Of a stretch of DNA of 32,000 nucleotides, positions 1 to 19,387 are shown one piece after another. Below the pieces are notes generated by a model. That model did not search any database. It had not been told where the DNA came from and saw nothing but the letters and a program-made list of their open reading frames with translations. Source of the DNA: Formosa sp. Hel1_33_131 (GTDB lineage Bacteria > Bacteroidota > Bacteroidia > Flavobacteriales > Flavobacteriaceae); NCBI RefSeq assembly GCF_001735745.1, contig NZ_CP017260.1:1020001-1052000 (forward strand), read 5' to 3'. Each line of letters starts with the position of its first letter. The stretch's first letter is position 1. The translations under genes and the position numbers were made by a program.

Positions 1-584
1 ATAATTTAGCAACAACGCTTTATACTTTCACACCAGACGCTGGACAATGTGCAGACGTCACCACCATGACCATTGTGGTGAATCCCATCAGTGTTTTAAC
101 AATCGACGCTACAAAGCTGTCGGAAGATTTTGATGCGAATCAAGTTATTTCAGTGTCTGCTACGGGCGGAAGTGGGACTTATGAATACCAATTAGATGGC
201 GGTGTTTGGCAAAGCAATGCAACCTTTGAATATGTAATTGGATGTCAAGAACATACGGTGGCTGTACGTGATGCACTTGGGTGTAGCACAATCCCTGAAA
301 CAACAGTAATGATTATGGAATTTCCAAAATTCTTTACGCCAAATGGCGATGGGTATAACGACACTTGGAACATCAAATGTTTGAGAGATGACCCCACTGC
401 GTTGATCTCTATTTTTGACCGTTTTGGAAAACTACTGTTTCAATTTAAACCCAGTCAAAATGCATGGAATGGTGTGTTTAATGGATTGATGTTACCAGCG
501 ACTGATTATTGGTTTGTGGTAAATTACTTGAAAAGTAATGACGTACAAACGGAGTTCAGATCCCATTTTTCATTACGCCATTGA
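1..584 (+). CDS. C-terminal end of a large T9SS-secreted repeat adhesin paralog (5' end lies outside the window)
   Basis: Frame 3 is open from nt 3 (NLATTLYTFTPDAGQCADVTTMTIVV...), so the Met at 66 is internal. It contains the end of a 66-aa Cys-repeat, an SprB-like GGSGTYEYQLDGG segment, and FPKFFTPNGDGYNDTWNI...DYWFVV...HFSLRH, which fits the gliding-motility-associated / T9SS type B C-terminal domain pattern (TIGR04131-like). It is roughly 75-80% identical to the C-termini of the two downstream paralogs. Confidence 0.85.
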   Translation, partial: NLATTLYTFTPDAGQCADVTTMTIVVNPISVLTIDATKLSEDFDANQVISVSATGGSGTYEYQLDGGVWQSNATFEYVIGCQEHTVAVRDALGCSTIPETTVMIMEFPKFFTPNGDGYNDTWNIKCLRDDPTALISIFDRFGKLLFQFKPSQNAWNGVFNGLMLPATDYWFVVNYLKSNDVQTEFRSHFSLRH

Positions 585-751
585 AAACGACTAAAAAATA
601 GGGGGTATTTCTTCAACTCAAAAATTAAAAACCAATCTTCCTTAATTCTGTTTGATTTATTGTTTTTTAAAAGTAATATGAGGGTTTAAATACTTTGTAT
701 TTGGATTATTTTTCATTTCTTTGAAGGATTAACCAATTTTAAGCTTACATA

Positions 752-3700
752 TTGATATTAAACCCTAGTGCTTCGACCCGTATAGCGTTGTTTATTTTAA
801 CCATTATCTGTTTTCAAACAGCTTCCCACACACAAACCTTAAATACAATTCGAAATGGTACACCAGGCTCAGGAGTATGGATGGGAAATAATGGATTAGC
901 CCCATGGGTTTTGGGTAAGGGCGACGATTGTTATCGAATAACCACTTCAGACCAAGGTCAAGGTGGAGCAGTATGGTATAATCACCCGATCAATTTTAAT
1001 AATCCTTTCACGATTAGTTATCAAGCTTATTTTGGACTTAATCAAAGTGGTGGAGATGGTATGGCCCTTGTTTTTAAGAGTAATAACAATAATGAGTTAG
1101 GATCAACAGGTGAAGGTATAGGATATGGAGGAATTAGTCCTTCAATGATTTTTGAGTTTGACACCTATTGGAACAGCGGAAAAGGGGATCCTCGTCCTGA
1201 ACCTAATGAAGATCACGTCGCATTCAACTGGTGGGGAAATCCAAATCACAACACATCTGCAATATCAAGTGTTCAGTCTGTTCCAAATATTGAAGACGAC
1301 GCCTTCCATGAAGTTAAAGTGACGTGGGAACCAGCGCCTGTTAGTCGACTTAGGCTTTATTTAGATTGTGACCTAAAATTAAGTATTAATGGGTTGTATA
1401 TTCAAACTGGCGTTATGGGTGGAGATTATACCAATTATTATTTTGGTTTTACAGGCTCCACAGGGGCAAACACAAACGCACAATTTGTTTGCTTTAACAG
1501 TATTTCATTTGTTGATGGCCTTAATATACCAGATACCACCATTTGCGAGGGACAAACAGTAACATGGATAAACGCTTTAATCCCCTCTGGGACCTCCTAC
1601 AGTTGGAGTCCAACAACGGGCGTTAGCAACCCTAACATTTCAAATCCAACATTCACACCCACTACCACAACAACCTATACCGTTAGTATTAGCGATGTGT
1701 GTGGGGACGTCACAACTGAAGATGTTACAATCAACGTCAACCCAAATATAGTTCCTAGTTTTCTAGTTGATGTTGATCTTTTCTGTGTAGGAGATGCCAA
1801 CCCATTAAACAACACCTCTTTAGAAGGAATTACAGGCAGCTGGTCGCCTGCCTTTGACAATACAACTTCTGGAACCTATACATTTACACCAACTGCAGGA
1901 CAATGCGCAACTACAGCAACAAAAACCATCACAGTCAATCCGTTTATTGACTCTAACTTTAATACTGTTGCCGACATTTGTGATGGCGACCCTTTAGCAC
2001 AACTGCCAACCACTTCTAACAATGGTATTACGGGAACTTGGAGTCCTGCTCTTGACAATACGATCACGACAGAGTATACATTTACACCTGATGGAGGGCA
2101 ATGTGCAAACCCAGCGAACCTCACCATCACAGTGATCCAAAAAACAGACCCTACATTTACAGCAGTTGCCGACATTTGTGATGGCGACCCATTAGCACAA
2201 CTGCCAATTGTCTCTAACAATGGGGTTACGGGTATTTGGGCACCAGCGCTTGACAATACGCTCACAACTATTTATACCTTCACACCCGATGCAGGACAAT
2301 GTGCAGATACAGCTACCCTAACGATTACAGTCAATCAAAAAACAGAGCCTGTGTTTACCGCTGTTGCTGATATTTGTAATGGCGACGTTTTAAATCCTTT
2401 ACCAACCACTTCTAATGATGGTTTTACGGGAACTTGGACACCGGTTCTTGACAACACACTGACGACGGTTTATACCTTTACTCCGGATGCAGGCGAGTGT
2501 GCAGATCCAACAACGCTCACAATCAATGTGAATCAAAAAGTAGATCCTGATTTTAATATAGTAAATGATGTTTGTAATGGAGCTATTTTAGCACCCTTAC
2601 CGACACTCTCAAACGACGGCTTCAACGGAACCTGGAGCCCAGCGCTTGACACCACCACAACAACGACTTATACCTTTACTCCTGACTTAGGCGATTGTGC
2701 AAATCCAGTAACCTCCACCATTACGGTCAATCCGATTGTTGATCCAACTTTTGACCCTGTTGATGACATCTGTGACGGCTCTGTTTTAGCTCCCCTACCG
2801 ACCATTTCTAACGAGGGAGTTAACGGAACTTGGAGTCCTGCGCTTGACGCTACAGCAACAACGACTTATACATTTACACCTGATGTGGGAGAATGTGCCA
2901 ACCCAACAACGCTCACCATTACCTATGTTGAAAAAATAAATTCTTTCTTTACGCCTGTTAATGACATTTGTAATGGAGACGTTTTAACACCGCTTCCGAC
3001 CACTTCCAACAATGGGGTTATCGGAACTTGGACGCCTGCACTGGACGCTACAGCAACAACGACTTATACATTTACACCTGGTGTGGGAGAATGTGCGTTT
3101 CCAACTACCCTCACTATTGTGGTGAACCAGAAGGTAAATCCTGATTTTACCCCTGTAAACGACATCTGTGACGGCGATTTATTACTGCCACTGCCTATCA
3201 CCTCTAACGATGGGATTACGGGGAGTTGGAGTCCAACGATTGATAATACGATTACAACCACTTATACATTTACACCCAACACTTGGGAGTGTGCAAATCC
3301 AATAACCCTTACTATTACGGTTGAGCAGAAAACAGACCCTGTGTTTACAGCTGTTGACGACATTTGTAATGGTGACGTTTTAGCAGCACTGCCAATCACG
3401 TCTAACAATGGTGTGACTGGAACTTGGAGTCCTGCGCTTGACAATACCCTGACGACTTTTTACACATTTACGCCTACTGCAGGACTCTGTGCAAACCCAG
3501 CAACGCTCTCGATTGTGGTGGAACAAAAAGTAGATCCTGTTTTTATCCCTGTTGACGACATTTGTGATGGCGATATTTTAGTGCCACTGCCAACCACTTC
3601 TAACGACGGGATCAACGGAACTTGGACGCCTGCACTTGACAATACACTGACGACTGTTTATACATTCACACCTGATACAGGAGAATGTGCAAACCCAGCA

Positions 3701-5806
3701 ACGCTCACCATCTCTGTAAATCAAAAAGTAGATCCTGTTTTTACCGCTGTTGATGACATTTGTGATGGCGATGTTTTAGCAGCACTGCCAACAACTTCGA
3801 ACAATGGGATTGTTGGTACTTGGAGTGCCGCAATGGACAATAGGCTGACAACCACTTATACATTTACGCCTGATGTAGGAGAATGTGCAAACCCAACAAC
3901 GCTCACGATTGTGGTGAACCAAAAAGTAGATCCTGACTTCACCCCTGTGAACGACATTTGTGATGGGGATCTTATAATGCCGCTACCAATTACCTCTAAC
4001 GATGGAATTACAGGAAGCTGGAGTCCAGCACTAGACAATACGCTCACAACCACTTATACCTTTACACCCGAGCTATGGGAATGTGCAAATCCAGCAACAC
4101 TCACCATTACGGTGGAACAGAAAACAAATCCTGATTTTACGGCTGTGGATGACATCTGTAACGGAGATGTTCTAACGCCACTGCCAACGACTTCGAACAA
4201 TGGGATTACGGGGACTTGGACGCCTGCGCTTGACAATACAACGACGTCTGTTTATACGTTTACTCCGGATGCAGGACTTTGTGCGAATCCAGCAACGCTT
4301 ACCATTGCAGTGATTCAAAAAGTGGACCCAATCTTCACTCCTGTGGATGGCATTTGTGAAAATGATGTTTTAGCTCCTTTGCCGACGACTTCTAACGACG
4401 GGATCACAGGAACTTGGACGCCTGCGCTTGATAACACCATAACAACGCTATATACGTTTACGCCAGATGTAGGAGAATGTGCAAATACTGCAACGCTCAC
4501 CATTCTTGTTGAACAAAGATTAAATTCAGTGTTTACGCCCGTTGATGCGATCTGTAATGGAGAGGCTTTGACAACTTTACCAACGACTTCTAATAATGGG
4601 ATTACGGGAACGTGGAGTCCTATTCTTAACAATAGGCTGACGACGACTTATACCTTTACTCCGAATTGGTGGGAGTGTGCTCGTACAGAAATACTCACTA
4701 TTGAAGTGAACCAAAAGGTGGATCCAGACTTTACCCCTGTGGATGCTATTTGTGACGGCGATTTTTTAACCGCCTTACCGACCACATCCAACGAGGGAAT
4801 TACAGGAAGTTGGAGTCCGATACTTGACAATACACAGACAACGACGTATCGATTTGCGCCCAATCCGTGGGAGTGTGCCATTCCTACAACGCTTACCATT
4901 GTAGTGGCTCAAAAAGCAGATCCTGTTTTCACGCCTGTAAATGACATTTGTGACGGGGATCTTTTAACGCCTTTACCAACGGTTTCTAATGATGGTTTTT
5001 CAGGGGTTTGGAGTCCAGCGATGGACAATACCACCACGACGCTTTACACATTTATGCCTGACATTGGCGAGTGTGCAAATCCAACTACGCTTACCATTGT
5101 GGTGATTCCAAACAGTATTTCTACGTTTACTCAGATTGATCCTATTTGCGATGGCGACACGGTGGTGTTGCCGACGGTCACTAACGAAGGGTTTAGAGGA
5201 TCTTGGACGCCTGCCTTCAACAACAATGCAACAACGACTTATACGTTTACCGCAGATCCCGGTGAATGTGCTGAACCCACCACTATGACGGTGGTTGTGA
5301 ATCCGATCAATGTGTTAACGATCAGTGCCATTAATCAGTCGGAAGATTTTGATGCGAATCAAATGATTTCAGTTTCCGTAACGGGAGGAAGTGGTTCTTA
5401 TGAATATCAGCTAGATGGTGGAAATTGGCAACTCAGCTCTGTTTTTGAATATGTGATTGGTTGTCAGGAACATACATTTAAGGTCAGAGATGTAATTGAT
5501 GTCTGTAATACACAACCGGAAGCAACCCTCACTATTTTGGAGTTCCCAAAGTTTTTTACACCAAATGGCGATGGCTATAACGATACTTGGAACATCAAAT
5601 GTTTGAGAGATGACGCTTCAGCTTCGGTCACTATTTTTGACCGTTTGGGAAAATTGTTGTTTCAATTTAGTCCCAATCGCAGTGCTTGGAATGGAACTTT
5701 TAATGGATCGATGTTGCCAGGAACTGATTATTGGTTTGTGGTGACTTACTTAAAAAGTGATGGCGTACAAACGCAGTTTAGATCCCATTTTTCATTGCGT
5801 CATTAG
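752..5806 (+). CDS. Giant T9SS cargo / adhesin: signal peptide + L-type lectin domain + 18 x 66-aa two-Cys repeats + SprB-like segment + T9SS type B CTD (1684 aa)
   Basis: TTG start at 752 follows an in-frame TAA at 740. The hydrophobic N-terminus is IALFILTIICFQTASH. Legume-lectin-like motifs are present (GGAVWY, GGDGMALVF, GIGYGG, IFEFDTYWN...GDP...DHVAFN). The repeats follow the pattern xDICxGDxLxPLPTTSNxGITGTWSPALDNTxTTxYTFTPxxGECAxPxTLTI. The C-terminal part is FPKFFTPNGDGYNDTWNI...HFSLRH. Confidence 0.9.
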   Translation: MILNPSASTRIALFILTIICFQTASHTQTLNTIRNGTPGSGVWMGNNGLAPWVLGKGDDCYRITTSDQGQGGAVWYNHPINFNNPFTISYQAYFGLNQSGGDGMALVFKSNNNNELGSTGEGIGYGGISPSMIFEFDTYWNSGKGDPRPEPNEDHVAFNWWGNPNHNTSAISSVQSVPNIEDDAFHEVKVTWEPAPVSRLRLYLDCDLKLSINGLYIQTGVMGGDYTNYYFGFTGSTGANTNAQFVCFNSISFVDGLNIPDTTICEGQTVTWINALIPSGTSYSWSPTTGVSNPNISNPTFTPTTTTTYTVSISDVCGDVTTEDVTINVNPNIVPSFLVDVDLFCVGDANPLNNTSLEGITGSWSPAFDNTTSGTYTFTPTAGQCATTATKTITVNPFIDSNFNTVADICDGDPLAQLPTTSNNGITGTWSPALDNTITTEYTFTPDGGQCANPANLTITVIQKTDPTFTAVADICDGDPLAQLPIVSNNGVTGIWAPALDNTLTTIYTFTPDAGQCADTATLTITVNQKTEPVFTAVADICNGDVLNPLPTTSNDGFTGTWTPVLDNTLTTVYTFTPDAGECADPTTLTINVNQKVDPDFNIVNDVCNGAILAPLPTLSNDGFNGTWSPALDTTTTTTYTFTPDLGDCANPVTSTITVNPIVDPTFDPVDDICDGSVLAPLPTISNEGVNGTWSPALDATATTTYTFTPDVGECANPTTLTITYVEKINSFFTPVNDICNGDVLTPLPTTSNNGVIGTWTPALDATATTTYTFTPGVGECAFPTTLTIVVNQKVNPDFTPVNDICDGDLLLPLPITSNDGITGSWSPTIDNTITTTYTFTPNTWECANPITLTITVEQKTDPVFTAVDDICNGDVLAALPITSNNGVTGTWSPALDNTLTTFYTFTPTAGLCANPATLSIVVEQKVDPVFIPVDDICDGDILVPLPTTSNDGINGTWTPALDNTLTTVYTFTPDTGECANPATLTISVNQKVDPVFTAVDDICDGDVLAALPTTSNNGIVGTWSAAMDNRLTTTYTFTPDVGECANPTTLTIVVNQKVDPDFTPVNDICDGDLIMPLPITSNDGITGSWSPALDNTLTTTYTFTPELWECANPATLTITVEQKTNPDFTAVDDICNGDVLTPLPTTSNNGITGTWTPALDNTTTSVYTFTPDAGLCANPATLTIAVIQKVDPIFTPVDGICENDVLAPLPTTSNDGITGTWTPALDNTITTLYTFTPDVGECANTATLTILVEQRLNSVFTPVDAICNGEALTTLPTTSNNGITGTWSPILNNRLTTTYTFTPNWWECARTEILTIEVNQKVDPDFTPVDAICDGDFLTALPTTSNEGITGSWSPILDNTQTTTYRFAPNPWECAIPTTLTIVVAQKADPVFTPVNDICDGDLLTPLPTVSNDGFSGVWSPAMDNTTTTLYTFMPDIGECANPTTLTIVVIPNSISTFTQIDPICDGDTVVLPTVTNEGFRGSWTPAFNNNATTTYTFTADPGECAEPTTMTVVVNPINVLTISAINQSEDFDANQMISVSVTGGSGSYEYQLDGGNWQLSSVFEYVIGCQEHTFKVRDVIDVCNTQPEATLTILEFPKFFTPNGDGYNDTWNIKCLRDDASASVTIFDRLGKLLFQFSPNRSAWNGTFNGSMLPGTDYWFVVTYLKSDGVQTQFRSHFSLRH
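1736..5296 (+). repeat. In-frame tandem repeat array, 18 units with an exact 198-bp period (last unit 195 bp), with a superimposed 792-bp (4-unit) higher-order period
   Basis: Unit starts were checked at 1736, 1934, 2132 and 5102, all in phase with 198 nt. By my count unit 8 vs 12 is about 85% identical at protein level and unit 9 vs 13 about 80%. Adjacent units 8 vs 9 are about 64%. Antisense ORFs in the track recur at a 792-nt offset (3064 vs 3856, 3262 vs 4054). Confidence 0.9.
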
Positions 5807-6003
5807 AAGTCGTGACGACACTTGAAATTAACTTTTAAAATAGCATCAAAAGAAGAGGGCGATTTTCAACACATAAATTGAAAAACAACCCCCTTAACTT
5901 CATGTAATTTATTGCAGTTTAAAAGCAATTCAACCTCCTAATTGCTTAGTAATTAGATTATTTTTCATTTCTTTGGGGGATTAACCAATTTTAAGCTTAC
6001 ATA

Positions 6004-9000
6004 TTGATATTAAATCCTAGTACCTCGACCCGTATAGCGTTGTTTATTTTAACCGTTATCTGTTTTCAAACAGCTTCCCACACACAAACCTTAAATACAA
6101 TTCGAAATGGTACACCAGGCTCAGGAGTATGGATGGGAAATAATGGATTAGCCCCATGGGTTTTGGGTAAGGGCGACGATTGTTATCGAATAACCACTTC
6201 AGACCAAGGTCAAGGTGGAGCAGTATGGTATAATCACCCGATCAATTTTAATAATCCTTTCACGATTAGTTATCAAGCTTATTTTGGACTTAATCAAAGT
6301 GGTGGAGATGGTATGGCCCTTGTTTTTAAGAGTAATAACAATAATGAGTTAGGATCAACAGGTGAAGGTATAGGATATGGAGGAATTAGTCCTTCAATGA
6401 TTTTTGAGTTTGACACCTATGGAACAGCGGAAAAGGGGATCCTCGTCCTGAACCTAATGAAGATCACGTCGCATTCAACTGGTGGGGAAATCCAAATCAC
6501 AACACATCTGCAATATCAAGTGTTCAGTCTGTTCCAAATATTGAAGACGACGCCTTCCATGAAGTTAAAGTGACGTGGGAACCAGCGCCTGTTAGTCGAC
6601 TTAGGCTTTATTTAGATTGTGACCTAAAATTAAGTATTAATGGGTTGTATATTCAAACTGGCGTTATGGGTGGAGATTATACCAATTATTATTTTGGTTT
6701 TACAGGCTCCACAGGGGCAAACACAAACGCACAATTTGTTTGCTTTAACAGTATTTCATTTGTTGATGGCCTTAATATACCAGATACCACCATTTGCGAG
6801 GGACAAACAGTAACATGGATAAACGCTTTAATCCCCTCTGGGACCTCCTACAGTTGGAGTCCAACAACGGGCGTTAGCAACCCTAACATTTCAAATCCAA
6901 CATTCACACCCACTACCACAACAACCTATACCGTTAGTATTAGCGATGTGTGTGGGGACGTCACAACTGAAGATGTTACAATCAACGTCAACCCAAATAT
7001 AGTTCCTAGTTTTCTAGTTGATGTTGATCTTTTCTGTGTAGGAGATGCCAACCCATTAAACAACACCTCTTTAGAAGGAATTACAGGCAGCTGGTCGCCT
7101 GCCTTTGACAATACAACTTCTGGAACCTATACATTTACACCAACTGCAGGACAATGCGCAACTACAGCAACAAAAACCATCACAGTCAATCCGTTTATTG
7201 ACTCTAACTTTAATACTGTTGCCGACATTTGTGATGGCGACCCTTTAGCACAACTGCCAACCACTTCTAACAATGGTATTACGGGAACTTGGAGTCCTGC
7301 TCTTGACAATACGATCACGACAGAGTATACATTTACACCTGATGGAGGGCAATGTGCAAACCCAGCGAACCTCACCATCACAGTGATCCAAAAAACAGAC
7401 CCTACATTTACAGCAGTTGCCGACATTTGTGATGGCGACCCATTAGCACAACTGCCAATTGTCTCTAACAATGGGGTTACGGGTATTTGGGCACCAGCGC
7501 TTGACAATACAATTACGACACTTTATACATTTACACCTACTGCAGGACTCTGTGCCAATCCAACAACGCTCACCATCACAGTGATCCAAAAAACAGACCC
7601 TACATTTACAGCTGTGAATGACATTTGTAACGGGGATGTTTTAAATCCTTTACCAACCACATCTAACAATGGAGTGAATGGAACTTGGACACCAGCACTG
7701 AACAATACACTCACGACACAGTATACTTTTACGCCTGATGCAGGCGAGTGTGCAAATACGGCTACGCTCGTGATTTTAGTGAATCAAAAAACAGACCCTA
7801 CCTTTGCAGCCATCAACGATATCTGTAATGGGGCTGCTTTAGACCCCTTGCCAACGATCTCAAACAATGGAGTGAACGGAACTTGGACCCCTGCACTTGA
7901 CAATACGTTAACGACGACTTATACATTTACACCAACTGCAGGACTCTGTGCAAATCCAACAACGCTTACCATCACAGTAAACGATCAAGTAGATCCCTTA
8001 TTTACGGCTGTTGCGGATATTTGTAATGGCGACATTATAGCACCCTTAGCAACCACGTCTAACAATGGCATTACAGGAAGTTGGAATCCAGCTCTTGATA
8101 ACACACTCACAACGACTTATACGTTTACGCCCAGTCCAACCGAATGTGCAAATCCAACAACACTCACTATTGTAGTCAACCAAAAAGTGAATCCACTATT
8201 TACGCCTGTTAATGACATTTGTAATGGCGACGTTTTAGTGCCTTTACCAACCACGTCTAACGATGGTATTACAGGGACTTGGAGTCCAACACTTGACAAT
8301 ACAATCACGACGACTTATACTTTTACCCCAGATGTAGGGGAATGTGCAAACCCAGCAACGCTCACGATTACAGTGATTCAAAAAGTGGACTCGATATTTA
8401 ACCCCATAGGTGACATCTGTAGTGGCGGTCCTCTAGTGCCACACCCAACGACCTCTAATAATGGGATCACAGGAACTTGGAGTCCTGCGCTTGACAATAC
8501 AATCACAACCTTATATACGTTTACCCCTGATGCAGGCGAATGTGCAAACCCAGCAACGCTTACCATATTAGTGAATCAAAGAGTTGACCCGACCTTTATG
8601 GCTGTTGGCGGTATCTGTAACGGTGCAGTTTTAGCGCCTTTACCAACTACCTCTAATGAGGGTATTAACGGAACTTGGAGTCCTGCACTGGACAATACAA
8701 TCACGACCTTATATACCTTTACGCCTGATCCAGGAGAATGTGCAAACCCAACAACGCTTACTATTACGGTAGGTGAACCAGTAGATCCCCTATTTACGCC
8801 TATAAACGACATCTGTAACGGAGAAGCTTTAGCACCCTTGCCTCCAACATCTAACAATGGGATTACCGGAACTTGGAATCAAGCACCTAGCAATACGGCT
8901 ACTGCTGTTTACATATTTACGCCTAATGCGTGGGAGTGTGCAAACCCAACAACACTCTCCATTACGGTAAATCAGAAAGTAGATCCTGACTTCACGCCTG

Positions 9001-10265
9001 TGAATGACATTTGTAATGGCGACGTTTTAGCACCCTTACCAACCACGTCTAACGATGGCATTATTGGTACTTGGACGCCTGCTGTTGACAATACGCTGAC
9101 AACCACCTATACGTTTACACCAGATCCAAACGAATGTGCCAACCCAGCAACCCTTACGATTGTAGTGAATCAAAAAGTAAACCCTGATTTCACCCCTGTG
9201 GATGATATCTGTACTGGAACTGTTTTAGCGCCTTTACCAACGACGGCTAACAATGGTGTAACCGGAACTTGGAGTCCAGCACTTGATAATACAATAACTA
9301 CCTTATATACATTTACACCTGATGCAGGCTTGTGTGCAAACCCAGCAACGCTGACCATTTTAGTGATCCAAAAATTAGATCCTATTTTTGACCCTATAAA
9401 CCTCATTTGTGAAGGCGATTTATTAGCACCCTTACCAACAAATTCCAATCAAGGAATTGCGGGAACTTGGAGTCCTGCACTGGACAATACTGCAACTGGC
9501 ATTTATACATTTACACCCAATGCAGGCGAATGTGCAAATCCTACAAACCTAACCGTTACAGTCATTCCTAACAGCATTTCTACGTTCACACAAATAGACC
9601 CTATTTGTGCCGGCGAGACGATCACATTACTAACACAATCGAATCAAGGATTTAATGGAACTTGGAGTCCTGCTGTTGATAATACCACAACGACGACTTA
9701 CACCTTTACAGCAGATCCAGGCGAATGTGCAGACCCAACCACAATGACGGTAGTGGTCATTCCTGTAAATGTTTTAACGATTAGTGCTATAAATCTTTCA
9801 GAGGAATTTGATGCGAATCAAGTTATTTCCGTAACGGCATCAGGCGGAAGTGGTTCTTATGAGTATCAATTAGATGGCGGAGATTGGCAGTTCAGTTCTA
9901 TTTTCGAATATGTAATTGGATGTGATGAGCATACGGTGGCGGTAAGAGATGCCGTTGATAGCTGTAACATCCAGCCAGAAACCACAGTTGCGATTATGGA
10001 GTTCCCTAAATTCTTTACACCTAATGGTGATGGTTATAACGATACTTGGAACATCAAATGTTTTCTTGACGACCCTTTTGCAATGGTGCGTTTATCCGAT
10101 CGTTACGGGAAGTTATTGTATGAATTTAAACCAAGTCTAGACTCATGGGATGGCTCATTCAATGGCGAGATGTTGCCCAGTACGGACTATTGGTTTGTGG
10201 TAACCTATATAAACAGTAATGGAGTGGAAACGATTTACAGATCTCACTTTTCTTTGAGACGTTAA
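6004..10265 (+). pseudogene. Frameshifted paralog of the 752..5806 adhesin (lectin head + 14 x 66-aa repeats + T9SS type B CTD), split into ORFs 6004..6573 and 6570..10265
   Basis: Copy 2 reads acacctaTTggaacagc at 1161-1177, while copy 3 reads acacctaTggaacagc at about 6414-6429. This is a single T deletion at 6420/6421 inside the EFDTYWN lectin motif. The downstream ORF starts at a GTG with no signal peptide and continues the same protein. The surrounding sequence is otherwise identical to copy 2. A sequencing error cannot be excluded. Confidence 0.8.
6987..9755 (+). repeat. In-frame 198-bp tandem repeat array, 14 units, in the frameshifted paralog
   Basis: The phase is the same as in copy 2 (offset 5251 after the indel). 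The last unit ends at ...DPTTMTVV (9755), before VIPVNVLTISAINLS. Confidence 0.85.
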
Positions 10266-10448
10266 GAGACGTCAATTTTTAAGCTAAATAACAGACAGTC
10301 ACATTCTTTTGTGAAACTAAAATAATTGCTTTTTAAAATATTTTTTTGTACTTAATTACATATTTCTTAAATAAATCGTAAATTTATGAGAATAATTCAA
10401 TTTTATTCACTAAATTAGGCAGTAACCAAACTTTTAAGTAATATATAG

Positions 10449-11075
10449 ATGTTTTATCGTAATAACACAGCACTTGTAGCGTTGTTTGTTTTTGCCGCTA
10501 TAAGCTTTCAGACTTTATCCCATGCACAGTTAAATACCGTAACTGCTGGCAGTGCCTCAGACTTAGGAGGCAATTGTTATGAAATCACTCCTGATCAGGT
10601 TTACCTCTCTGTTGTAAATTCAATATTTTCTCCTACAATCACAACAACCTTTACAGTTAGCATTACCGACATTTGTGAAGACGTCACAACCGAGTGTGTT
10701 TTAATCACCGTCAATCCAACTATTACTCCAACATTTACACCAATAAACCCTATTTGTGAAGGAACTATTTTATTGAATTTACCAACCATATCAAATAATG
10801 GCTTTAGGGACACCTGATCTCCTGCCGCAAATAATAAAGTACCTACAGATTACTCCTTTACCCCCCAACCCCAATTCCGGGTGTTTGCTGTAATGATGGT
10901 AAAATGACCATTACAGTTTTTACAAAAGCAATCCTACTATTTACCCAAGTTGACCCCTTTTTTGCCTACGATTTCCAATGGTGGGATTATTGGTGTTTGT
11001 AGTCCTTCATTAAATAATTTAGAAAATACATTGAGGAAATTTCACTTAAAAAGTGGAGAGAATGCGTAAAGGGTA
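10449..11075 (+). pseudogene. Decayed 5' remnant of a fourth adhesin paralog (signal peptide, lectin domain deleted, degenerate repeats)
   Basis: ORF 10449..10817 has a signal peptide (ALVALFVFAAISFQTLSHAQ) and GGNCYEITPDQ, matching GDDCYRITTSDQ in the intact copies. It then jumps directly to SPTITTTFTVSITDICEDVTTECVLITVNP, matching TPTTTTTYTVSISDVCGDVTTEDVTINVNP, so about 230 aa of lectin domain are missing. A stop follows NNGFRDT. Downstream out-of-frame relics are SPAANNKVPTDYSFTP and LPTISNGGIIGVCSPSLNN...SGENA. Confidence 0.75.
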
Positions 11076-11144
11076 AGAAAACAAAATACGCTAAATCTAG
11101 AGTTACAAATAATCAATTTAAACTAAAAATTAAAAAACTAAGCT

Positions 11145-11483
11145 ATGAAAAACCTAATCCACATTATTATTTTTATGTTTGGAATTTCCATGTTAGGACA
11201 AACATTTATTCTACAAGAACGCGATAAACAATTACATTTTGCAGCTGGGAGTTTTGCTGGAGTGTTAGGTTACAGTTGGTCATATCATAGGTACCATAAT
11301 AAAACTAAAGCTATAATTACAGGTTTATGTACTTCACTTGTAGCTGGCGTTGCTAAAGAAGTATATGATAACTATCAAGGAGGCATTTTTGATAAAAGAG
11401 ATATATTAGCAACTGGAATGGGTGGAGTATTTGTAACATTTACAATACCACTATTTCAAAATAAAAAGAATAGGTCACAGTAG
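11145..11483 (+). CDS. Small YfiM/DUF2279-like membrane protein or lipoprotein (112 aa)
   Basis: ATG start and hydrophobic N-terminus. The pattern DKQLHFAAGSFAGVLG ... GLCTSLVAGVAKEVYD ... GIFDKRDILATGMGG parallels E. coli YfiM (DKAQHF...GASKELWD...WSWKDFAWDVAG). The assignment rests on motif memory only. Confidence 0.55.
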   Translation: MKNLIHIIIFMFGISMLGQTFILQERDKQLHFAAGSFAGVLGYSWSYHRYHNKTKAIITGLCTSLVAGVAKEVYDNYQGGIFDKRDILATGMGGVFVTFTIPLFQNKKNRSQ

Positions 11484-11578
11484 GAATTACATGTTCTAGT
11501 TTCGATCTATTTTATGCAGTTCATGTTAAGATTCTGTAAGAGGCAAAACAACAATAACTAAATCATTATTATAAATAC

Positions 11579-11760
11579 AATCCATCAAAATTAGCGATAC
11601 AAACCTATCGGAAGAATTAATGTCAATAAAACTATTTCAGCAATGGCATCGAGTAGATGTGGTACTTATGAATATCAATTAGATGGAGTAGATTGCCAAA
11701 CGAGTTCAGTATTTGAAAATGTGATTGGATGTGATGATCATAGGATGGAAATAGGGATTT
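11579..11760 (+). pseudogene. Decayed 3' remnant of the fourth adhesin paralog (SprB-like segment only; T9SS CTD absent)
   Basis: Nucleotide similarity to 81-270 of copy 1. tcggaagaattaatgtcaat...ggtacttatgaatatcaattagatgg translates to ...CGTYEYQLDGVDCQTSSVFENVIGCDDH, compared with GGSGTYEYQLDGGVWQSNATFEYVIGCQEH. There is no continuous ORF and no FPKFFTPNGDG domain after it. Confidence 0.7.
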
Positions 11761-11818
11761 GTTCATTAATGTATAAATTTAGATTGCACCAATTTTGACA
11801 AAAATCACACCAAAATAA

Positions 11819-14800
11819 TCAGAAATATGCTTTTAACTGCACAGTCCCCGTATGGATGGTGCGACTGGTTTCACTCTTTCTGCCAAAATAATTGATATTC
11901 AGATCTAAGAACTTCGTCAGTTTTTTTTGCGCAATTAAAGACCACGTAAAGTTAGTGCCAGGCTGTAAGCCTTCCATCATTTGGTAGGCAACCGGCGTAT
12001 TGGCATTTCCAGAAAAATCATTTGAAAAATAATTAAACTCTCCTGTAATGGCGGCTTTCTGATTTTGGGTTAGCGTAAACGATACTCCATATTTCTCTTG
12101 TGTGAGTTGTTCCAAACCTCCAATAGAATTGTCTTTCTTTTGATGTTGATAATACACATCAAAGCGTTTGTTATCATCCAGTAAATAGGACAGTTTGGGA
12201 TTCAAAAGCGTTTCATTAAGTTGATAATTTTTAGATGAAAAGTTTTGGCTTGCACTTTTATTTTTATCTAAGTTCGTTTGTAAATTGAGCAACCACTGCT
12301 CTTGAATTATATGTGAAAAATTAAGCTGATGACTAAACGTTTCCTGTTCCACATACCCAAATGACAACACATTCCGAGCGTTGGATTCCGAATAACTGTA
12401 GGAAACCGTATAATGTTGCTTCCCTCTGTTGTAAAACAACTGATTTCTAAAATTCGATTGCAATGCCAACTGATCTTCCGACGTTGAATGAAACGGATTT
12501 AGACGGATGGATGCACTGTTATTTTTATCCTTTCGATCGATTAAAAAAGAGGTTTGGTTATAAAAATGAGACCAAAACCGTTTGGAGGCTTGGGTCGAAT
12601 TGGCCCACTGAATTGGGTTTAAAGTCAGGGATTGACTCAGTTTATTTTGATGCGTTGGAATGTAAACTTGGTTGGGCAACAACACACGAACATAAGTCGC
12701 TAGATCTTGAAATTGAGCGATTTCAAATTCTTCTAATTCCTGAATACCGTTCTCATTATAATCGAACCAGACAAAACTTCCCTGACCAGGTTCTACTTCT
12801 ACATACGTAAAATCTTGTTGTGGCAAACGCCCTGCATTGGTTTCAAACAGTGTATTCCAATGGATCAAATTATTGACTAACTTTTGACTGTATTGCAATC
12901 GAGAATTGATTGATTTCTGAGTGGCCGTGGATGCGTTTGTAGATTTAAAAACCCTGTAATTTGCATATAAACTCAAATTCGTGTTTTGAGTTTGAATCCA
13001 TTTGGAATCCAAATAATAGGTGTCTGATGCGTTCACTTTGGCAAGGCGGTTATTCTGAATACTGTCATTCACCCTGTGAATATACCCTAGTTTCACAAAC
13101 ACCTTTGTTGAATCACCAATACCCGTAAACACTTCATAGGCTTGAAATTTCTGACTGATGGGGTCTAACTGATTTAATACAACATCCTTTTTTTCGTTGT
13201 GTTCCGTAGAAAATTTTACTCCCGACCAGCCTTTTTGATAACTGTATTTCAAGCGGTTATCAGACCTATAAAACATAGAATTCGAGTTGAATCCATCCGT
13301 TTCTAAGATGCTTGAATTCGTGTAAAACTGAAAGCGTTTCAAGTTGAGTTTTGTAAAGAGCACATGACGTCTCCCTTCGTAATTATCTTTGTAGTTCAAA
13401 TGTTGAAATTGATAATTGAACGTTCCTTTTTGGGCATGTGAAAATTTGGCACCTGCAACTGCAAAAACTTGATCGCCTAGATTAGGTACACTTTGATTTC
13501 CAGTTAGGGGTTCAACATTCCAATCCCGATTGAATTCGGGTCTGTAGAGTCTTTGGATTGTTCTGAAATCACTTTGTACATAATCGATGTCGGAAGTGAC
13601 ATCTAACGTCCAGTCTCCAGCCGTTTTAAGTAGTTGATGGTCTATAGACAGTTGACCCGCCACCCCTGTGTCATTCTCATCATCGAGCGATGAGTATAAA
13701 TTTAAGTCATTTTTACTGGCGGCAAATTCAAACTCAATAGCTGTTTTTTCATTGGGTTTAAAAGCCCCATTCACCACCGCCACTTGTAATTTTACAGGAG
13801 CAACGAGTTGCACAATCGGTTCAAAATCCCCTTGTTTGATCCCAGCTATGGGTGCGACATACTCGTAAATATTTGAAATGGCATTAGAGCTTGTTATCTT
13901 ATAATTACCTTGCATTGACCCTACCGCCGTGAAATTGACAAGGTACAATTCATCCTCAGCATTGTTTGAAAACTCAAATACTTCCACCCCGTTATCAATA
14001 ACTTTCTGATATAAAATTCGATTTTCGTTATACGCTTCAGGAGTGGCTGAAGGCGCCGTCATTAGGGTTTGGTCATCTCCTGCATTGGACAAAATCGCTA
14101 CTTGTTCCGAATTAAGAGATTGCTGAAGCGGTTGGTTTTTTAGATCATTTTCATTGTAAACAGAAACGCCCAGCGTCCATTTTTTATTTTTATAACGACT
14201 GCCCGCATACCCTATAAATCGAGAATAATTCCGCTCACTGTATTGATAATCGACCGTAATTCGCATTTCTGAATTGATGGGATAGGTGGCATTAAAAATT
14301 AGTTCCCCCGCATTATAATCAATAATATAATCCTCTGTGGCGCCACGTTGCAAAGGAATTCCATTCACATACACGGTTTCGCTTCCAGAAACCACTAAAA
14401 CATACAACTCATTATTTGGCCCAACAAGCTTATAAGGTCCTTGATTTCCTTCTTGCCCTACAAATTGACTTGATGAAAATTGACCACGCACCAAAGCTCC
14501 TGAGGCAAAAGCGGTAAACTCTGAATCTTCATTTTTAAAATTAGTGGTCAATGAAAGCCCTTGAACCCGTTTAGAAAATTTTGAGAAATAAGACTGCGTA
14601 TCTTCTAAATCAATATCCCCCGCTCTGATTCCCCAACGCTCACTAAAAACTTCAATAAACACCTGATCAAATTCATCCAACTGTTGTGAGTAACCGCTTT
14701 CCTGTAAGGGAATGTTTGAATCTTGAATGGACGCCCGCAAGGTCACTTTATCATTTAACTTGCCGCTAATTTGCAAATCAAGTTCACTGTTCAATACCGA

Positions 14801-15256
14801 ATTTTGATTGTTTCCAATAGTCACCCCTCTTGAGATACTTCCAGAAGACACCAAACCATCAAATGGCAGCACCACCCGTTTTGAGCTGGGTTGGGATAAC
14901 TGGTATAGTTTTTGAAGATTTCCAGTACTATTCACAATAATGCCTTCATCCAATTCTTGATACGTTTTGGTGATGAAACTCGGATAGCTTAAATAAGTGA
15001 CTACAATGGAATCTGTCTCCAAAGTATTAGGAAAGGTGAGCAGCGCATTTTCAAAATCTATCGTGTATAATGAGGGTGAAATAGTCTCATTTTTTAAATT
15101 TGATACAGAAAAATTAGAAGGATTAATGCTTACACTGTCAATTTGAAGGATACCGCTTACCGCTAGTTTTTTTGTCCTATAGAGAGACGACACCTCTTGA
15201 GACCAAGAATGTGTAAAAGATATAAGGAGTAAAATTGTAAAACAGTACTTCATCAT
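11819..15256 (-). CDS. Large predicted outer-membrane beta-barrel protein, family not identified (1145 aa)
   Basis: Long uninterrupted ORF with an N-terminal signal peptide (CFTILLLISFTHSWSQ). The composition is rich in alternating aromatic/polar and N/S/Q/Y residues, as is typical of beta-barrels. The C-terminus ends ...VQLKAYF with a terminal Phe. No TonB-box or plug motifs were recognised. Confidence 0.7.
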   Translation of the reverse strand: MMKYCFTILLLISFTHSWSQEVSSLYRTKKLAVSGILQIDSVSINPSNFSVSNLKNETISPSLYTIDFENALLTFPNTLETDSIVVTYLSYPSFITKTYQELDEGIIVNSTGNLQKLYQLSQPSSKRVVLPFDGLVSSGSISRGVTIGNNQNSVLNSELDLQISGKLNDKVTLRASIQDSNIPLQESGYSQQLDEFDQVFIEVFSERWGIRAGDIDLEDTQSYFSKFSKRVQGLSLTTNFKNEDSEFTAFASGALVRGQFSSSQFVGQEGNQGPYKLVGPNNELYVLVVSGSETVYVNGIPLQRGATEDYIIDYNAGELIFNATYPINSEMRITVDYQYSERNYSRFIGYAGSRYKNKKWTLGVSVYNENDLKNQPLQQSLNSEQVAILSNAGDDQTLMTAPSATPEAYNENRILYQKVIDNGVEVFEFSNNAEDELYLVNFTAVGSMQGNYKITSSNAISNIYEYVAPIAGIKQGDFEPIVQLVAPVKLQVAVVNGAFKPNEKTAIEFEFAASKNDLNLYSSLDDENDTGVAGQLSIDHQLLKTAGDWTLDVTSDIDYVQSDFRTIQRLYRPEFNRDWNVEPLTGNQSVPNLGDQVFAVAGAKFSHAQKGTFNYQFQHLNYKDNYEGRRHVLFTKLNLKRFQFYTNSSILETDGFNSNSMFYRSDNRLKYSYQKGWSGVKFSTEHNEKKDVVLNQLDPISQKFQAYEVFTGIGDSTKVFVKLGYIHRVNDSIQNNRLAKVNASDTYYLDSKWIQTQNTNLSLYANYRVFKSTNASTATQKSINSRLQYSQKLVNNLIHWNTLFETNAGRLPQQDFTYVEVEPGQGSFVWFDYNENGIQELEEFEIAQFQDLATYVRVLLPNQVYIPTHQNKLSQSLTLNPIQWANSTQASKRFWSHFYNQTSFLIDRKDKNNSASIRLNPFHSTSEDQLALQSNFRNQLFYNRGKQHYTVSYSYSESNARNVLSFGYVEQETFSHQLNFSHIIQEQWLLNLQTNLDKNKSASQNFSSKNYQLNETLLNPKLSYLLDDNKRFDVYYQHQKKDNSIGGLEQLTQEKYGVSFTLTQNQKAAITGEFNYFSNDFSGNANTPVAYQMMEGLQPGTNFTWSLIAQKKLTKFLDLNINYFGRKSETSRTIHTGTVQLKAYF

Positions 15257-15375: not shown

Positions 15376-16137
15376 ATGAAAATTATTTCTTACAACGTTA
15401 ACGGGATTCGAGCTGCGCTCAAAAAAGGGTTTATAGATTGGCTAAAAAGTGCCGATCCAGACGTGATCTGTTTACAGGAAATAAAAGCCCAAGAAGACCA
15501 ACTCGATTTGAGTGTTTTTGAAGCGGCTGGTTATGCTTACAATTATTGGTTCAGTGCACAAAAAAAAGGATACAGCGGCGTGGCTATTTTATCTAAAACC
15601 AAACCAACCAATGTGGTGTTTGGAACAGGCATTGAGTCGATGGATTTTGAAGGACGTAACATTCGTGCGGATTTTGATGGCGTTTCAGTGATGAGTTTAT
15701 ACCTGCCCTCCGGAACAAACTTAGCGCGTTTAGAGCACAAACTCGAGTATATGGATTTGTTTCAAGGTTATATAAACACGCTTAAAAAAGAAGTTCCTAA
15801 TCTTGTTGTTTGTGGCGATTACAATATTTGTCATGAGGCCATTGACATTCATGATCCTGTGAGAAATAAAAATGTATCTGGGTTCCTGCCTGAAGAACGC
15901 GCTTGGATGACTCAATTTTTAAACAATGGTTTTGTAGATGCGTTTCGCGAATTTAATACAGAACCTGATAATTATAGTTGGTGGAGCTACCGTGCAAATT
16001 CGCGTGCCAATAACAAAGGCTGGCGTTTGGATTATACATTAGTTTCGCAACCATTACAAGAAAAATTAAAACGCGCCGTTATCTTATCTGAAGCGGTGCA
16101 CAGTGACCACTGTCCTGTTTTAGTTGAATTACAATAA
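15376..16137 (+). CDS. xth: Exodeoxyribonuclease III (AP endonuclease)
   Basis: MKIISYNVNGIRAA...DVICLQEIKA...GYSGVAILSK...WSYR...GWRLDY...SDHCPV is the canonical ExoIII/EEP family pattern. The length is 253 aa. Confidence 0.9.
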   Translation: MKIISYNVNGIRAALKKGFIDWLKSADPDVICLQEIKAQEDQLDLSVFEAAGYAYNYWFSAQKKGYSGVAILSKTKPTNVVFGTGIESMDFEGRNIRADFDGVSVMSLYLPSGTNLARLEHKLEYMDLFQGYINTLKKEVPNLVVCGDYNICHEAIDIHDPVRNKNVSGFLPEERAWMTQFLNNGFVDAFREFNTEPDNYSWWSYRANSRANNKGWRLDYTLVSQPLQEKLKRAVILSEAVHSDHCPVLVELQ

Positions 16138-16161
16138 ACATAATTTTATAAATTACATACA

Positions 16162-17121
16162 ATGATTAAAAGACTTTTAATTTTAACCCTCGTTATTTTT
16201 ACCTCAACCTCTTGTGTATCTTCCAAACTATACAAGGAACTAGAAGGCAAATACTCGAATCTTAAAAATGATTATGACACCTTAAATGCTGATAGCGAAA
16301 GTGTTTTAAGTGATAAAAATGCACTTCAAAATCAATTTGATCAATTGCAAAGTGAATATGATGCGACGGTTTTAGAACGCAATCAACTGCAACAAGATGT
16401 GACTGCGCTTCAGAAAAAATACGATGCACTGAATGATTCTTATACCGCCCTAGAGCAAAATAGTTCCAAAGCCATCGCTGATAATGTGCAAAAAAACAGA
16501 GAACTTTTAGCACAGTTAGACGCCAAAGAAACGGCCTTGGCAGCAGAAAATAATCGTCTTTTGAAATTAGAAGCCGACATGCAAGAACGCTCGCAACGCA
16601 TTGCAGAATTAGAAGCGCTCATCGCTTCCAAAGACCAAGCGATGCGCGACTTGAAAGATGCGATTTCAAATGCACTGACCGCTTTTGAAGGCAAAGGACT
16701 GACGGTTGAGCAACGCGATGGAAAAGTCTATGTGTCCATGGAAAATAAGTTACTTTTCAAATCGGGGAGTTGGGCTATTGGATCTGATGGACGTACTGCT
16801 ATTGAACAGCTCGGAACTGTTTTAGCTGATAACCCTGATATTGCGGTACTCATTGAAGGACATACGGATAATGATCCTTTTTCAAGTGGGGGACAAATTG
16901 CTAATAACTGGGATTTATCAACGAAACGTGCCACAGCAATCGTTCAAATTTTAAATGAAAATGAGGCGATCAACCCCGAAAGCTTAACCGCTGCTGGACG
17001 TGGTGAATTTGCACCAATTGCTACCAACGAAACGAACGAAGGTAAAGCCAGAAACAGACGTATTGAAGTAGTGTTGACACCAAAATTAGATGAAATATCA
17101 AAGCTTTTAAATAACGATTAA
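16162..17121 (+). CDS. OmpA-family lipoprotein with a long coiled-coil and a C-terminal OmpA/MotB peptidoglycan-binding domain
   Basis: Lipobox-like LVIFTSTSC. The central region is heptad-rich and Q/E/L/A-rich. The C-terminus reads IEGHTDNDP...NWDLSTKRATAIVQIL...GRGEF...NRRIEVVL. Confidence 0.85.
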   Translation: MIKRLLILTLVIFTSTSCVSSKLYKELEGKYSNLKNDYDTLNADSESVLSDKNALQNQFDQLQSEYDATVLERNQLQQDVTALQKKYDALNDSYTALEQNSSKAIADNVQKNRELLAQLDAKETALAAENNRLLKLEADMQERSQRIAELEALIASKDQAMRDLKDAISNALTAFEGKGLTVEQRDGKVYVSMENKLLFKSGSWAIGSDGRTAIEQLGTVLADNPDIAVLIEGHTDNDPFSSGGQIANNWDLSTKRATAIVQILNENEAINPESLTAAGRGEFAPIATNETNEGKARNRRIEVVLTPKLDEISKLLNND

Positions 17122-18158
17122 TGAACTACACCAAACTTCCAAGTACCGATATTAAAGTAAGTAAAATATGCCTCGGTTCTATGACCTGGGGAAATCAAAA
17201 TACAGAAGCTGAAGGCCATGCACAAATGGATTATGCGTTAGATCACGGGGTCAATTTTATTGACACTGCAGAGCTATATCCTGTGCCTGCTACCGCTGAA
17301 ACTCAAGGACGAACCAGTGAATATATTGGAACTTGGCTCAAGAAAAATAAAACTAGAGATAAGGTTATAATAGCCAGTAAAATTGCGGGAACAGGCGATT
17401 ATACAGCACATATCAGAACCAAAGGATTTAGTGCAGACACAATTAAGGAAGCTTTGGAATTAGAACTGGCACGCTTACAAACAGATTATATTGACTTGTA
17501 TCAACTCCACTGGCCAGAACGTCACACCAATACATTTGGCGTGCGCGATTTTAAACCCAGTCCAAACGATCCGTGGGTTGATAATTTTAATGAAGTCCTA
17601 CACGCTTTAAAATCCTTTGTGGATGCCGGTAAAATTAGAGCAATTGGTTTATCGAATGAAAAAGCCTGGGGCGCCATGCGCTGTGCAGAAGAAGTTCGAA
17701 AAGATAATTTAATCTCGATTAGCACCACTCAAAATGCCTATTCAATGTTGAATAGAGTGTTTGAAGGGGATTTGGCAGAAGTATCTTTAAGAGAAAATAT
17801 GGGGCTTCTAGCCTACTCTCCTTTAGCATTTGGAGTGCTTTCTGGAAAATACATTGAGGGCACTGCTGCAGACAATGCACGTCTGAAGTTGTTCCCCCGT
17901 TTTGCGCGTTATAGCAGTGAACAATCCACCGAAGCAGCCAAACAGTATTTACAACTCGCAAAAGAGTTGGGCATCAGTCTTACAACGCTTTCTTTGGCAT
18001 TTGTGAACCAAAGACCTTTTGTGACAAGTAATATTATTGGGGCTACAAATTTAGAGCAGCTAAAAGAAAACATAGCGAGTATTGATACGGAATTGTCGCA
18101 GGAAACTTTAGATCGTATCGATGCGATTCATGCAACGATTCCGAATCCAGCACCATAA
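17121..18158 (+). CDS. tas: NADP(H)-dependent aldo/keto reductase, Tas-like
   Basis: Collinear similarity to E. coli Tas as I recall it (LGSMTWGNQNTEAEGHAQMDYALDHGVNFIDTAELYPVP...ETQGRTSEYIG; LQTDYIDLYQLHWP; IGLSNE; QNAYSMLNR; FPRFARYSSEQ). The ATG overlaps the upstream TAA by 1 nt. Confidence 0.8.
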   Translation: MNYTKLPSTDIKVSKICLGSMTWGNQNTEAEGHAQMDYALDHGVNFIDTAELYPVPATAETQGRTSEYIGTWLKKNKTRDKVIIASKIAGTGDYTAHIRTKGFSADTIKEALELELARLQTDYIDLYQLHWPERHTNTFGVRDFKPSPNDPWVDNFNEVLHALKSFVDAGKIRAIGLSNEKAWGAMRCAEEVRKDNLISISTTQNAYSMLNRVFEGDLAEVSLRENMGLLAYSPLAFGVLSGKYIEGTAADNARLKLFPRFARYSSEQSTEAAKQYLQLAKELGISLTTLSLAFVNQRPFVTSNIIGATNLEQLKENIASIDTELSQETLDRIDAIHATIPNPAP

Positions 18159-18176
18159 TAATTTTTAGAAATTAAC

Positions 18177-19217: not shown

Positions 19218-19245
19218 ATTGGACAAAACAATTGATACCTAAAAA

Positions 19246-19376
19246 GAGGCTGTCTGGAAAGACTTTGTTTTGTCAATCTGAACTTGTTTCAGATTCTAAA
19301 AAAAATTGATTTCCAATACTCTGAGATTCTGAAACAAGTTCAGAATGACAAGTTTATTTACTTTCCAGACAGCCTC
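19246..19376. repeat. 131-bp nested palindromic (long hairpin) intergenic element between queA and rlmN
   Basis: The outer arms gaggctgtctggaaag (19246-19261) and ctttccagacagcctc (19361-19376) are perfect 16-nt complements. The inner arms tgtcaatctgaacttgtttcagattct (19271-19297) and agattctgaaacaagttcagaatgaca (19324-19350) are complementary with 2 mismatches. Each inner arm also contains its own mini-palindrome tctgaa-N5-ttcaga. Confidence 0.85.
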
Positions 19377-19387
19377 ATAATTTTTAA

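Follow-up and report, generated by a model that had tools for sequence, protein, structure and literature searches.

Interlocus gene conversion and concerted evolution occur in bacteria in the tufA and tufB genes of Salmonella, the opa genes of Neisseria and ribosomal RNA operons, and such conversion was reportedly reviewed by Santoyo and Romero in 2005. Cassette conversion can also be programmed to produce antigenic variation, as at Neisseria pilE/pilS and Borrelia vlsE; systems of the pilE/pilS type have one expression locus, which receives sequence by one-way transfer from silent, promoterless donor cassettes. In Porphyromonas gingivalis, surface proteins exported via a type IX secretion system (T9SS) undergo domain rearrangement and allelic exchange in the adhesin domains of Kgp, RgpA and HagA (PMC5266723). 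Fibrillar adhesins combine an adhesive tip domain with a repetitive stalk (PMC8286594). Here we describe a locus of Formosa sp. Hel1_33_131 that bears on each of these systems. It lies in a 32,000-nt stretch of contig NZ_CP017260.1 (positions 1,020,001 to 1,052,000), the whole of which we call the window and whose positions are used as coordinates throughout. The window contains a tandem array of paralogous genes, two of which, copy 2 and copy 3, are predicted to encode surface proteins with a lectin head on a stalk of 66-amino acid repeats, and their 5' parts are nearly identical. With a probability of roughly 85%, we interpret copies 2 and 3 as old tandem paralogs whose 5' parts have been kept alike by repeated intrachromosomal gene conversion.

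Local alignment of window positions 600-5900 against 5851-10400 finds no substitution between 804-2259 of copy 2 and 6056-7510 of copy 3, and a single 1-nt indel. A first-pass annotation of the window had reported this tract in the same terms, and its count of about six substitutions in the first 100 nt is exactly six in 704-803 (at 724, 725, 763, 770, 772 and 803). Upstream of the tract, 34 of the 99 aligned sites in 604-703 differ (~34% divergence, ~66% identity). Beyond 2259, identity drops immediately to 63-78% per 100 nt (divergence 27.7%), so the pairwise alignment that the annotation had proposed as a check returns a stepwise change. The longest substitution-free run spans 1456 columns, compared with a mean of 39 and a maximum of 83 in 5000 permutations of the variable sites. 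The tract is bounded on both sides and its identity is far above the paralog background, which is the pattern by which gene conversion is recognised. It ends directly after the 11-mer CTTGACAATAC, which encodes LDNT and has 11 exact matches in the window against 0.07 expected. The annotation had the 11-mer recurring in most repeat units; this holds when up to two mismatches are allowed (27 of 28 units, always in the same 198-nt phase), the exact form being confined to 11 of the 28.

The history of the tract can be read from related strains. Exact look-ups of two neighbouring window proteins led to the same locus on 16 metagenome contigs, comprising six short-read contigs (L002-L007) and ten records named 'contig_N', 66-475 kb in length, from eight European Nucleotide Archive assemblies (L008-L017). 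A scan of GTDB genomes with head peptides had a sister-species metagenome-assembled genome (MAG), L001, as its sole return, and a scan of JGI metagenomes with a degenerate pattern for the 3' junction of the tract gave one contig, L018. This contig is of the beta/native type and laid out as in the sister lineage, so that the scan added no second instance of the junction seen in the window. Over the housekeeping genes at 15376-20437, the window shares 99.1-99.8% identity with L002-L012 and L014-L016; these are the close strains (lineage A). L013 and L017 are 94.5% identical and represent a sister lineage. The gene order in related contigs is paralog 1, copy 2, copy 3 and a remnant of a fourth paralog. 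We aligned all heads and scored the 331 sites that separate copy 2 from copy 3 in contig L012. The noisy contigs L011, L015 and L017 (copy 3), with mixed type-2/type-3 patterns and many frameshifts, were excluded as evidence.

These comparisons resolve the tract into two layers. The first, 773-1734, covers the signal peptide, the lectin domain and an immunoglobulin (Ig)-like segment, and shows 0-7 differences between the copies in each of the close strains. At 724, 725, 763, 770 and 772 the two copies have fixed differences in all close strains, and the A at 803 occurs in the window genome alone. The haplotypes show 773-1734 to be a homogenised block of the whole strain cluster, either older or continually renewed. 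The second layer, 1735-2248, comes in two versions: alpha is the native form of copy 3 and beta that of copy 2. Of 526 sites, 186 (35%) distinguish them; they share 61% protein identity, and beta is 12 nt longer. Alpha is present in copy 3 of L009, L012, L013, L004 and the window, and beta in copy 2 of L009, L010, L011, L012, L013, L014, L016 and L017. The copy-2 head of the sister lineage (L001, L013, L017 and L018) lies ~13-15% from the shared head, compared with a genome background of 5.5%, which suggests that the copy-2 head of the window lineage has been overwritten by the copy-3 type. Derivation of the diverged copy-2 head of L013 and L017 from paralog 1 is ruled out by an identity of only ~71%. 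Within the shared head, an A/G polymorphism at 1470 (and 6721) crosses the copies: both window copies and copy 2 of L012 and L016 have A, and all others have G.

Only 1735-2259 of the tract is specific to the lineage of this strain. Copy 2 of the window is of type 2 up to 1733, of type 3 at 177 of 177 informative sites in 1734-2259, and again of type 2 from 2260, where it matches copy 2 of L012 without a difference over 2260-2700. At the right junction, the window sequence departs from the beta parent at 2248 and from the alpha parent at 2260, which places the switch inside the 11-mer. Copy 3 of the window has native alpha and the type-3 arrangement, as in L009, L012, L013 and L004. The transfer was non-reciprocal, in that copy 2 keeps its own flanks and the donor, copy 3, is unchanged. 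The two alpha copies of the window are identical (0/526) and lie 14-16 sites from alpha in L009, L012 and L013, so that the resident copy 3 is the simplest donor, and the allele match points to a source within the same genome. Together, the haplotypes show that a stretch was copied from copy 3 into copy 2 in place of beta; by our reconstruction its length is between 514 nt (1735-2248) and 1487 nt (773-2259). The first-pass annotation had proposed recent conversion of a 1.46-kb block, with an abrupt end at a microhomology, and had described that block as covering the lectin head and its 5' region. Conversion and the abrupt end stand, now that the population haplotypes supply both parents. The 1.46 kb did not arise in one recent event, and the recent block is not the head: it covers the first 2.6 stalk repeats, and 773-1734 is common to all close strains.

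Other strains show further outcomes at the same locus. The unconverted state, with beta in copy 2 and alpha in copy 3, is found in L012 and, with clean reading frames, in L009. Transfer in the reverse direction, from copy 2 to copy 3, is seen in L010, L014 and L016, where both genes carry beta. In L010 and L014 (contigs of 209-475 kb) the copies are identical over 773-2386 (1614 nt, 0 differences), and the reverse conversion in all three returns to copy-3 sequence within the 23-nt shared stretch 2387-2409 (7638-7660). Directly at the end of the reverse tract, a T-to-A change at 2387 (7638) occurs in L010, L014, L016 and L002 and is absent at the L008/L006 junction; it may have been introduced by the event itself or have arisen afterwards. 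The 311-kb contig L008 has a single fusion gene (its positions 5542-9817), which follows copy 2 to the window equivalent of 2409 and then copy 3, and contig L006 shows the same fusion junction at its start. The L008 fusion implies a probable deletion by crossover within the homogenised tract. Copy 2 of L009 is shorter by exactly one 198-nt unit (at gene offset 1288-1485, counted against L010) and encodes 1622 amino acids versus 1688, and the sister-lineage protein has 1624, so that the stalk is polymorphic in repeat number. Copy 3 of L002 reads alpha, then copy-2 type over 7511-7637, then the A, then copy-3 type; this is due either to another conversion or to a chimeric path across mixed strains. 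As all these outcomes occur among strains less than 1% apart, the exchanges are recent and recurrent.

On a larger scale, L013 and L017 are ~100% identical to the window over 6100-12400 despite their 94.5% housekeeping identity. This region takes in copy 3, the remnant open reading frame (ORF), a pair of small ORFs and the 3' end of a gene for a 1145-amino acid protein. It looks like a ~6.5-kb segment that was recently transferred between the lineages.

The mechanism may be outlined as follows. RecA-type pairing would begin in the ~960-nt identical head, and the diverged cassette would be replaced by donor-templated DNA synthesis, through gap repair, synthesis-dependent strand annealing or template switching. 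Because the cassettes are 35% diverged and differ in length by 12 nt, synthesis-based copying is probable, rather than heteroduplex correction. Copying would end once the new strand can pair again with the recipient over a short conserved motif (LDNT, or LNPLPTTS in the reverse event). The locus shows that copying can traverse strongly diverged sequence and then stop in 11-23 nt of identity.

The 1-nt indel within the tract is not neutral, as it shifts the reading frame of copy 3, a point that the first-pass annotation left unmentioned. Copy 2 reads CCTATTGG at 1162-1169, with its TT given at 1168-1169, and copy 3 reads CCTATGG at ~6420. The 189-amino acid product of the first ORF of the split copy 3 matches FORMB_09550 of Formosa sp. 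Hel1_33_131 at 100% identity. Every other assembly has TT in both copies, and a single T in copy 3 is peculiar to the isolate genome; L002, L009, L010, L014 and L016 have an intact copy 3 (1420 or 1424 amino acids). The frameshift is thus either a fresh pseudogenising mutation or an error of 454 sequencing or finishing. Slipped-strand phase variation was considered and rejected: the difference is TT versus T within CCTATTGG, where there is no long homopolymer or tandem repeat, and it is seen in the isolate only.

So, could the identity itself be a product of assembly? The isolate genome was assembled with Newbler from 454 reads of ~645 nt, and PCR plus Sanger sequencing served to close its gaps. 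Such reads are shorter than the 1456-nt run and unable to span the tract, so that its exact perfection is not guaranteed, and a repeat might have been collapsed, or pasted into both positions, during assembly and finishing. The uniqueness of the frameshift to the isolate genome would fit such an error, as would the breaks of short-read metagenome contigs at the tract borders. Contig L007 (k = 141) starts 141 nt, and L005 55 nt, before 7511, which is exactly one k-mer; L002 begins at the equivalent of 773. The ends of L002, L005, L006 and L007 all lie one k-mer from the junction or coincide with the base that opens the shared tract. Such break points would be expected of graph branches at 772|773 and 7510|7511, and they fit the block structure. 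Against a collapsed or pasted repeat, the junction of alpha with copy 2 shares only 11 nt with the alternative path, too few for a join made by an assembler, and it is reproduced in an independent assembly: the SPAdes contig L002 matches the window over 1820-5806, junction included, with 0 differences in 3987 nt. Contig L004 also matches copy 3 from 6845 for 1421 nt. The indel separates the copies, so they are not one pasted consensus, and in large contigs from other samples the same two genes share tracts just as perfect (1614 nt). We therefore consider collapse or pasting very unlikely. The annotation's concern over a misassembly remains pertinent to the exactness of the identity in a 454-based genome; a wholesale artefact is unlikely, the block structure being seen in independent assemblies.

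Nor do other routes to the identity account well for its shape. Recent tandem duplication, or a reciprocal unequal crossover in place of a non-reciprocal patch, has some plausibility at a locus where unequal crossover does occur, as shown by the L008 fusion gene and the L009 deletion of a 198-nt unit. Duplication, however, predicts identity over the whole 5.25-kb unit, and both flanks are 28-34% diverged; a single crossover alters gene number and leaves one flank identical, whereas copy 2 keeps both flanks and the gene count is unchanged. These expectations make both highly improbable. Purifying selection on the lectin head, without exchange of DNA, might be invoked for a tract that includes a recognisable ligand-binding domain. 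It would have to explain the lack of any synonymous difference in 1456 nt beside coding sequence that is 28% diverged, a tract that begins in the 5' leader and ends mid-module, and an orthologous sister-lineage head that is 13-15% diverged, and we regard its probability as negligible. The alpha patch might instead have been imported from another cell, by transformation or some other route of transfer and subsequent ectopic homologous recombination, and the ~100% identity of 6100-12400 in the 94.5% lineage is an instance of inter-lineage transfer at this very locus. The patch is nonetheless 0/526 sites from the alpha of the resident copy 3 and 14-16 from that of the other sampled strains, which makes import improbable.

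Several observations weigh against repeated intrachromosomal conversion, or limit how finely it can be described. Where in 773-1734 the event has its left end cannot be fixed. No long contig has the exact combination seen in the window; alpha in both copies is otherwise found only in the short-read contig L002, whose copy 3 differs in 7511-7637, a difference that may reflect a path through a strain mix. The large 'contig_N' assemblies are taken to be long-read from their naming, length and indel noise. A few true differences between the window copies may be masked by the short 454 reads, and both the copy-3 frameshift and the private base at 803 could be sequencing errors. The A/G polymorphism at 1470 is a hint that exchange within the head tract of this lineage took place more than once. 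For the mechanism, we infer both RecA dependence and synthesis-based copying.

The features of the locus are collected in the table.

Features of the adhesin-like gene array and of the tract shared by copies 2 and 3
Feature	Window position	Strand	Remarks
Paralog 1, C-terminal end	66-584	+	T9SS type B sorting domain: TIGR04131 (E-value 9.6e-32), CHU_C
Leader and first codons, copy 2	704-772	+	High identity to 5956-6024 of copy 3; older homology layer
Copy 2	752-5806	+	Intact, 1684 amino acids
Shared head tract, copy 2	773-1734	+	Partner is 6025-6985 in copy 3
TT of copy 2	1168-1169	+	Single T at ~6420 in copy 3
Alpha cassette, copy 2	1735-2248	+	Strain-specific patch, apparently converted; first 2.6 stalk repeats
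Repeat array, copy 2	1742-4909	+	16 units of 198 nt (66 amino acids)
Exchange interval CTTGACAATAC, copy 2	2249-2259	+	Right end of the conversion
Copy 3	6004-10265	+	Split into ORFs 6004-6573 (189 amino acids, FORMB_09550) and 6570-10265 (1231 amino acids)
Alpha cassette, copy 3	6986-7499	+	Native place; probable donor of the patch
Repeat array, copy 3	6993-9368	+	12 units of 198 nt
CTTGACAATAC in copy 3	7500-7510	+	Identity ends here
23-nt stretch common to the copies	7638-7660	+	Corresponds to 2387-2409 in copy 2
Fourth-paralog remnant	10449-10817	+	122-amino acid ORF: signal peptide with head and stalk fragments, without the lectin domain

From their domain layout, copies 2 and 3 are predicted T9SS-exported, fibrillar-adhesin-like proteins in which a lectin head is carried on a stalk of 66-amino acid modules. 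Copy 2 begins with a hydrophobic N-terminus, followed by an L-type lectin domain, a short Ig-like segment, then 16 repeats and finally a T9SS type B domain; copy 3 has the same layout with 12 repeat units. The N-terminus looks like a signal peptide by eye in the translations, with which the protein sequences quoted in the first-pass annotation agree. In copy 2, the lectin domain occupies amino acids 57-250 (PF18483 L-type lectin, E-value 9e-42), and its closest solved structure is a legume lectin (PDB 7elv, E-value 1e-29). The C-terminal TIGR04131 matches of copy 2 (E-value 8e-31) and copy 3 (2.5e-28) both exceed the curated cut-off. Lectin domain and 16 or 12 units thereby provide the adhesive tip and the repetitive stalk of a fibrillar adhesin.

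The stalk unit has the 66-amino acid consensus QKVDPxFTPVxDICNGDxLAPLPTTSNNGITGTWSPALDNTxTTTYTFTPDxGECANPATLTIxVN, with two conserved cysteines. No Pfam family matched the unit, and matches to IGFL and Cas9_b_hairpin were set aside as they look spurious. An AlphaFold (AF2) model was based on the window's 26 distinct units, units one and two being the same in both genes; the modelled unit is predicted to be beta-rich, with a predicted local distance difference test score (pLDDT) of 88. A PDB fold search with this model returned nothing significant (best E-value 0.9), the weak matches being Ig-like.

Neither protein was found in the published proteome tables searched, and an exact look-up of the copy-2 protein found it not to be on record. 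A sigma-70 promoter and terminator scan of 500-6100 gave counts at or below the shuffled expectation, with a model that does not cover Bacteroidota promoters. Inside the repeat arrays, ORFs of 105-129 amino acids lie antisense at 1876-2265, 4315-4632 and 7127-7507 (all on the minus strand) and are most likely by-products of repetitive, stop-poor sequence.

Elsewhere in the array, the complete paralog 1 is an 873-amino acid lectin/T9SS gene, found upstream of copy 2 in L008-L016. A further paralog, P0 (888 amino acids, Ig_7 and CHU_C), is 89% identical to paralog 1 across the last 1070 nt, far above the similarity of other paralog pairs (L008 1542-2611 versus 4292-5361; L001 4416-9833). In L013 and L017, paralog 1 is absent entirely. 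The P0/paralog 1 similarity and the loss in L013 and L017 suggest that further exchange or deletion may have taken place upstream in the array. Downstream, the 122-amino acid remnant is 100% conserved across all related contigs, the sister lineage included. Beside the array, the 1145-amino acid ORF (11819-15256, minus strand) is conserved in all related contigs; it has no Pfam or NCBIfam family above threshold and only very weak phage-tail-like matches.

What follows for the biology of these proteins? The two genes encode one and the same lectin head. At the base of the stalk a cassette is swapped, and copy 2 has a chimeric third stalk module. The shared tract in addition provides a substrate for deletions, and, if the frameshift is real, a copy-2-to-copy-3 event across 6420 would repair copy 3. 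For genomics, the tract explains the breaks in short-read metagenome assemblies and MAGs at this locus. In an abundant, bloom-associated marine flavobacterium, it provides a clean natural example of interlocus conversion, with parents, both directions and junctions at nucleotide level, and marks surface-adhesin genes as hot spots of strain-level variation in such populations. A broader proposal would make the locus a population-level cassette-exchange system. Here, alpha, beta and the common head would be shuffled between two expressed adhesin genes, whole genes would sweep across a species boundary of 94.5% average nucleotide identity, selection for surface variation (by phages or grazers, for example) would maintain the exchange, and the motif microhomologies would serve as preferred switch points. 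We regard this extension as doubtful. Interlocus conversion is itself a well-known bacterial process, and the event described here is real but ordinary, revealing no new mechanism.

A literature search on gene conversion in flavobacterial or T9SS adhesins found nothing specific beyond P. gingivalis, and no report of such conversion for flavobacterial lectin-headed type B cargo. The P. gingivalis proteins resemble those described here as T9SS cargo of Bacteroidota with repeated adhesin modules, in which recombination between genes yields strain variants. They differ in having gingipain and haemagglutinin domains with a type A C-terminal domain (CTD), in place of an L-type lectin, 66-amino acid modules and a type B CTD. 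P. gingivalis is moreover a host-associated pathogen, for which exchange between strains is stressed, whereas this Formosa is a free-living marine bacterium. With fibrillar adhesins, and with the SprB-like T9SS type B cargo of Flavobacteriia, copies 2 and 3 share an N-terminal binding domain, a stalk of small beta modules and a type B domain. In contrast to those proteins, the stalk unit here is without a Pfam family or a significant PDB fold match, and a role in adhesion or motility is only putative.

As in the pilE/pilS and vlsE systems, segments are copied between related surface-protein sequences and alter part of an exposed protein. Unlike pilE/pilS, both partners are full genes, each with its start codon, putative signal peptide and conserved 5' leader, and transfer is bidirectional. 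A programmed system of the pilE/pilS type is ruled out by these two complete genes and by transfer both ways. Neither a silent-cassette archive nor a dedicated cis element was found, and the 122-amino acid remnant was never seen as a donor. The closest likeness is to known interlocus conversion, with which the locus shares a non-reciprocal patch, retained flanks, an unchanged donor, variable endpoints and deletions between homogenised copies. It departs from those cases in that the evidence comes from natural population haplotypes of one locus, in both directions, and in that the copied stretch crosses a cassette that is 35% diverged and ends in microhomologies of 11 and 23 nt rather than in long homology.

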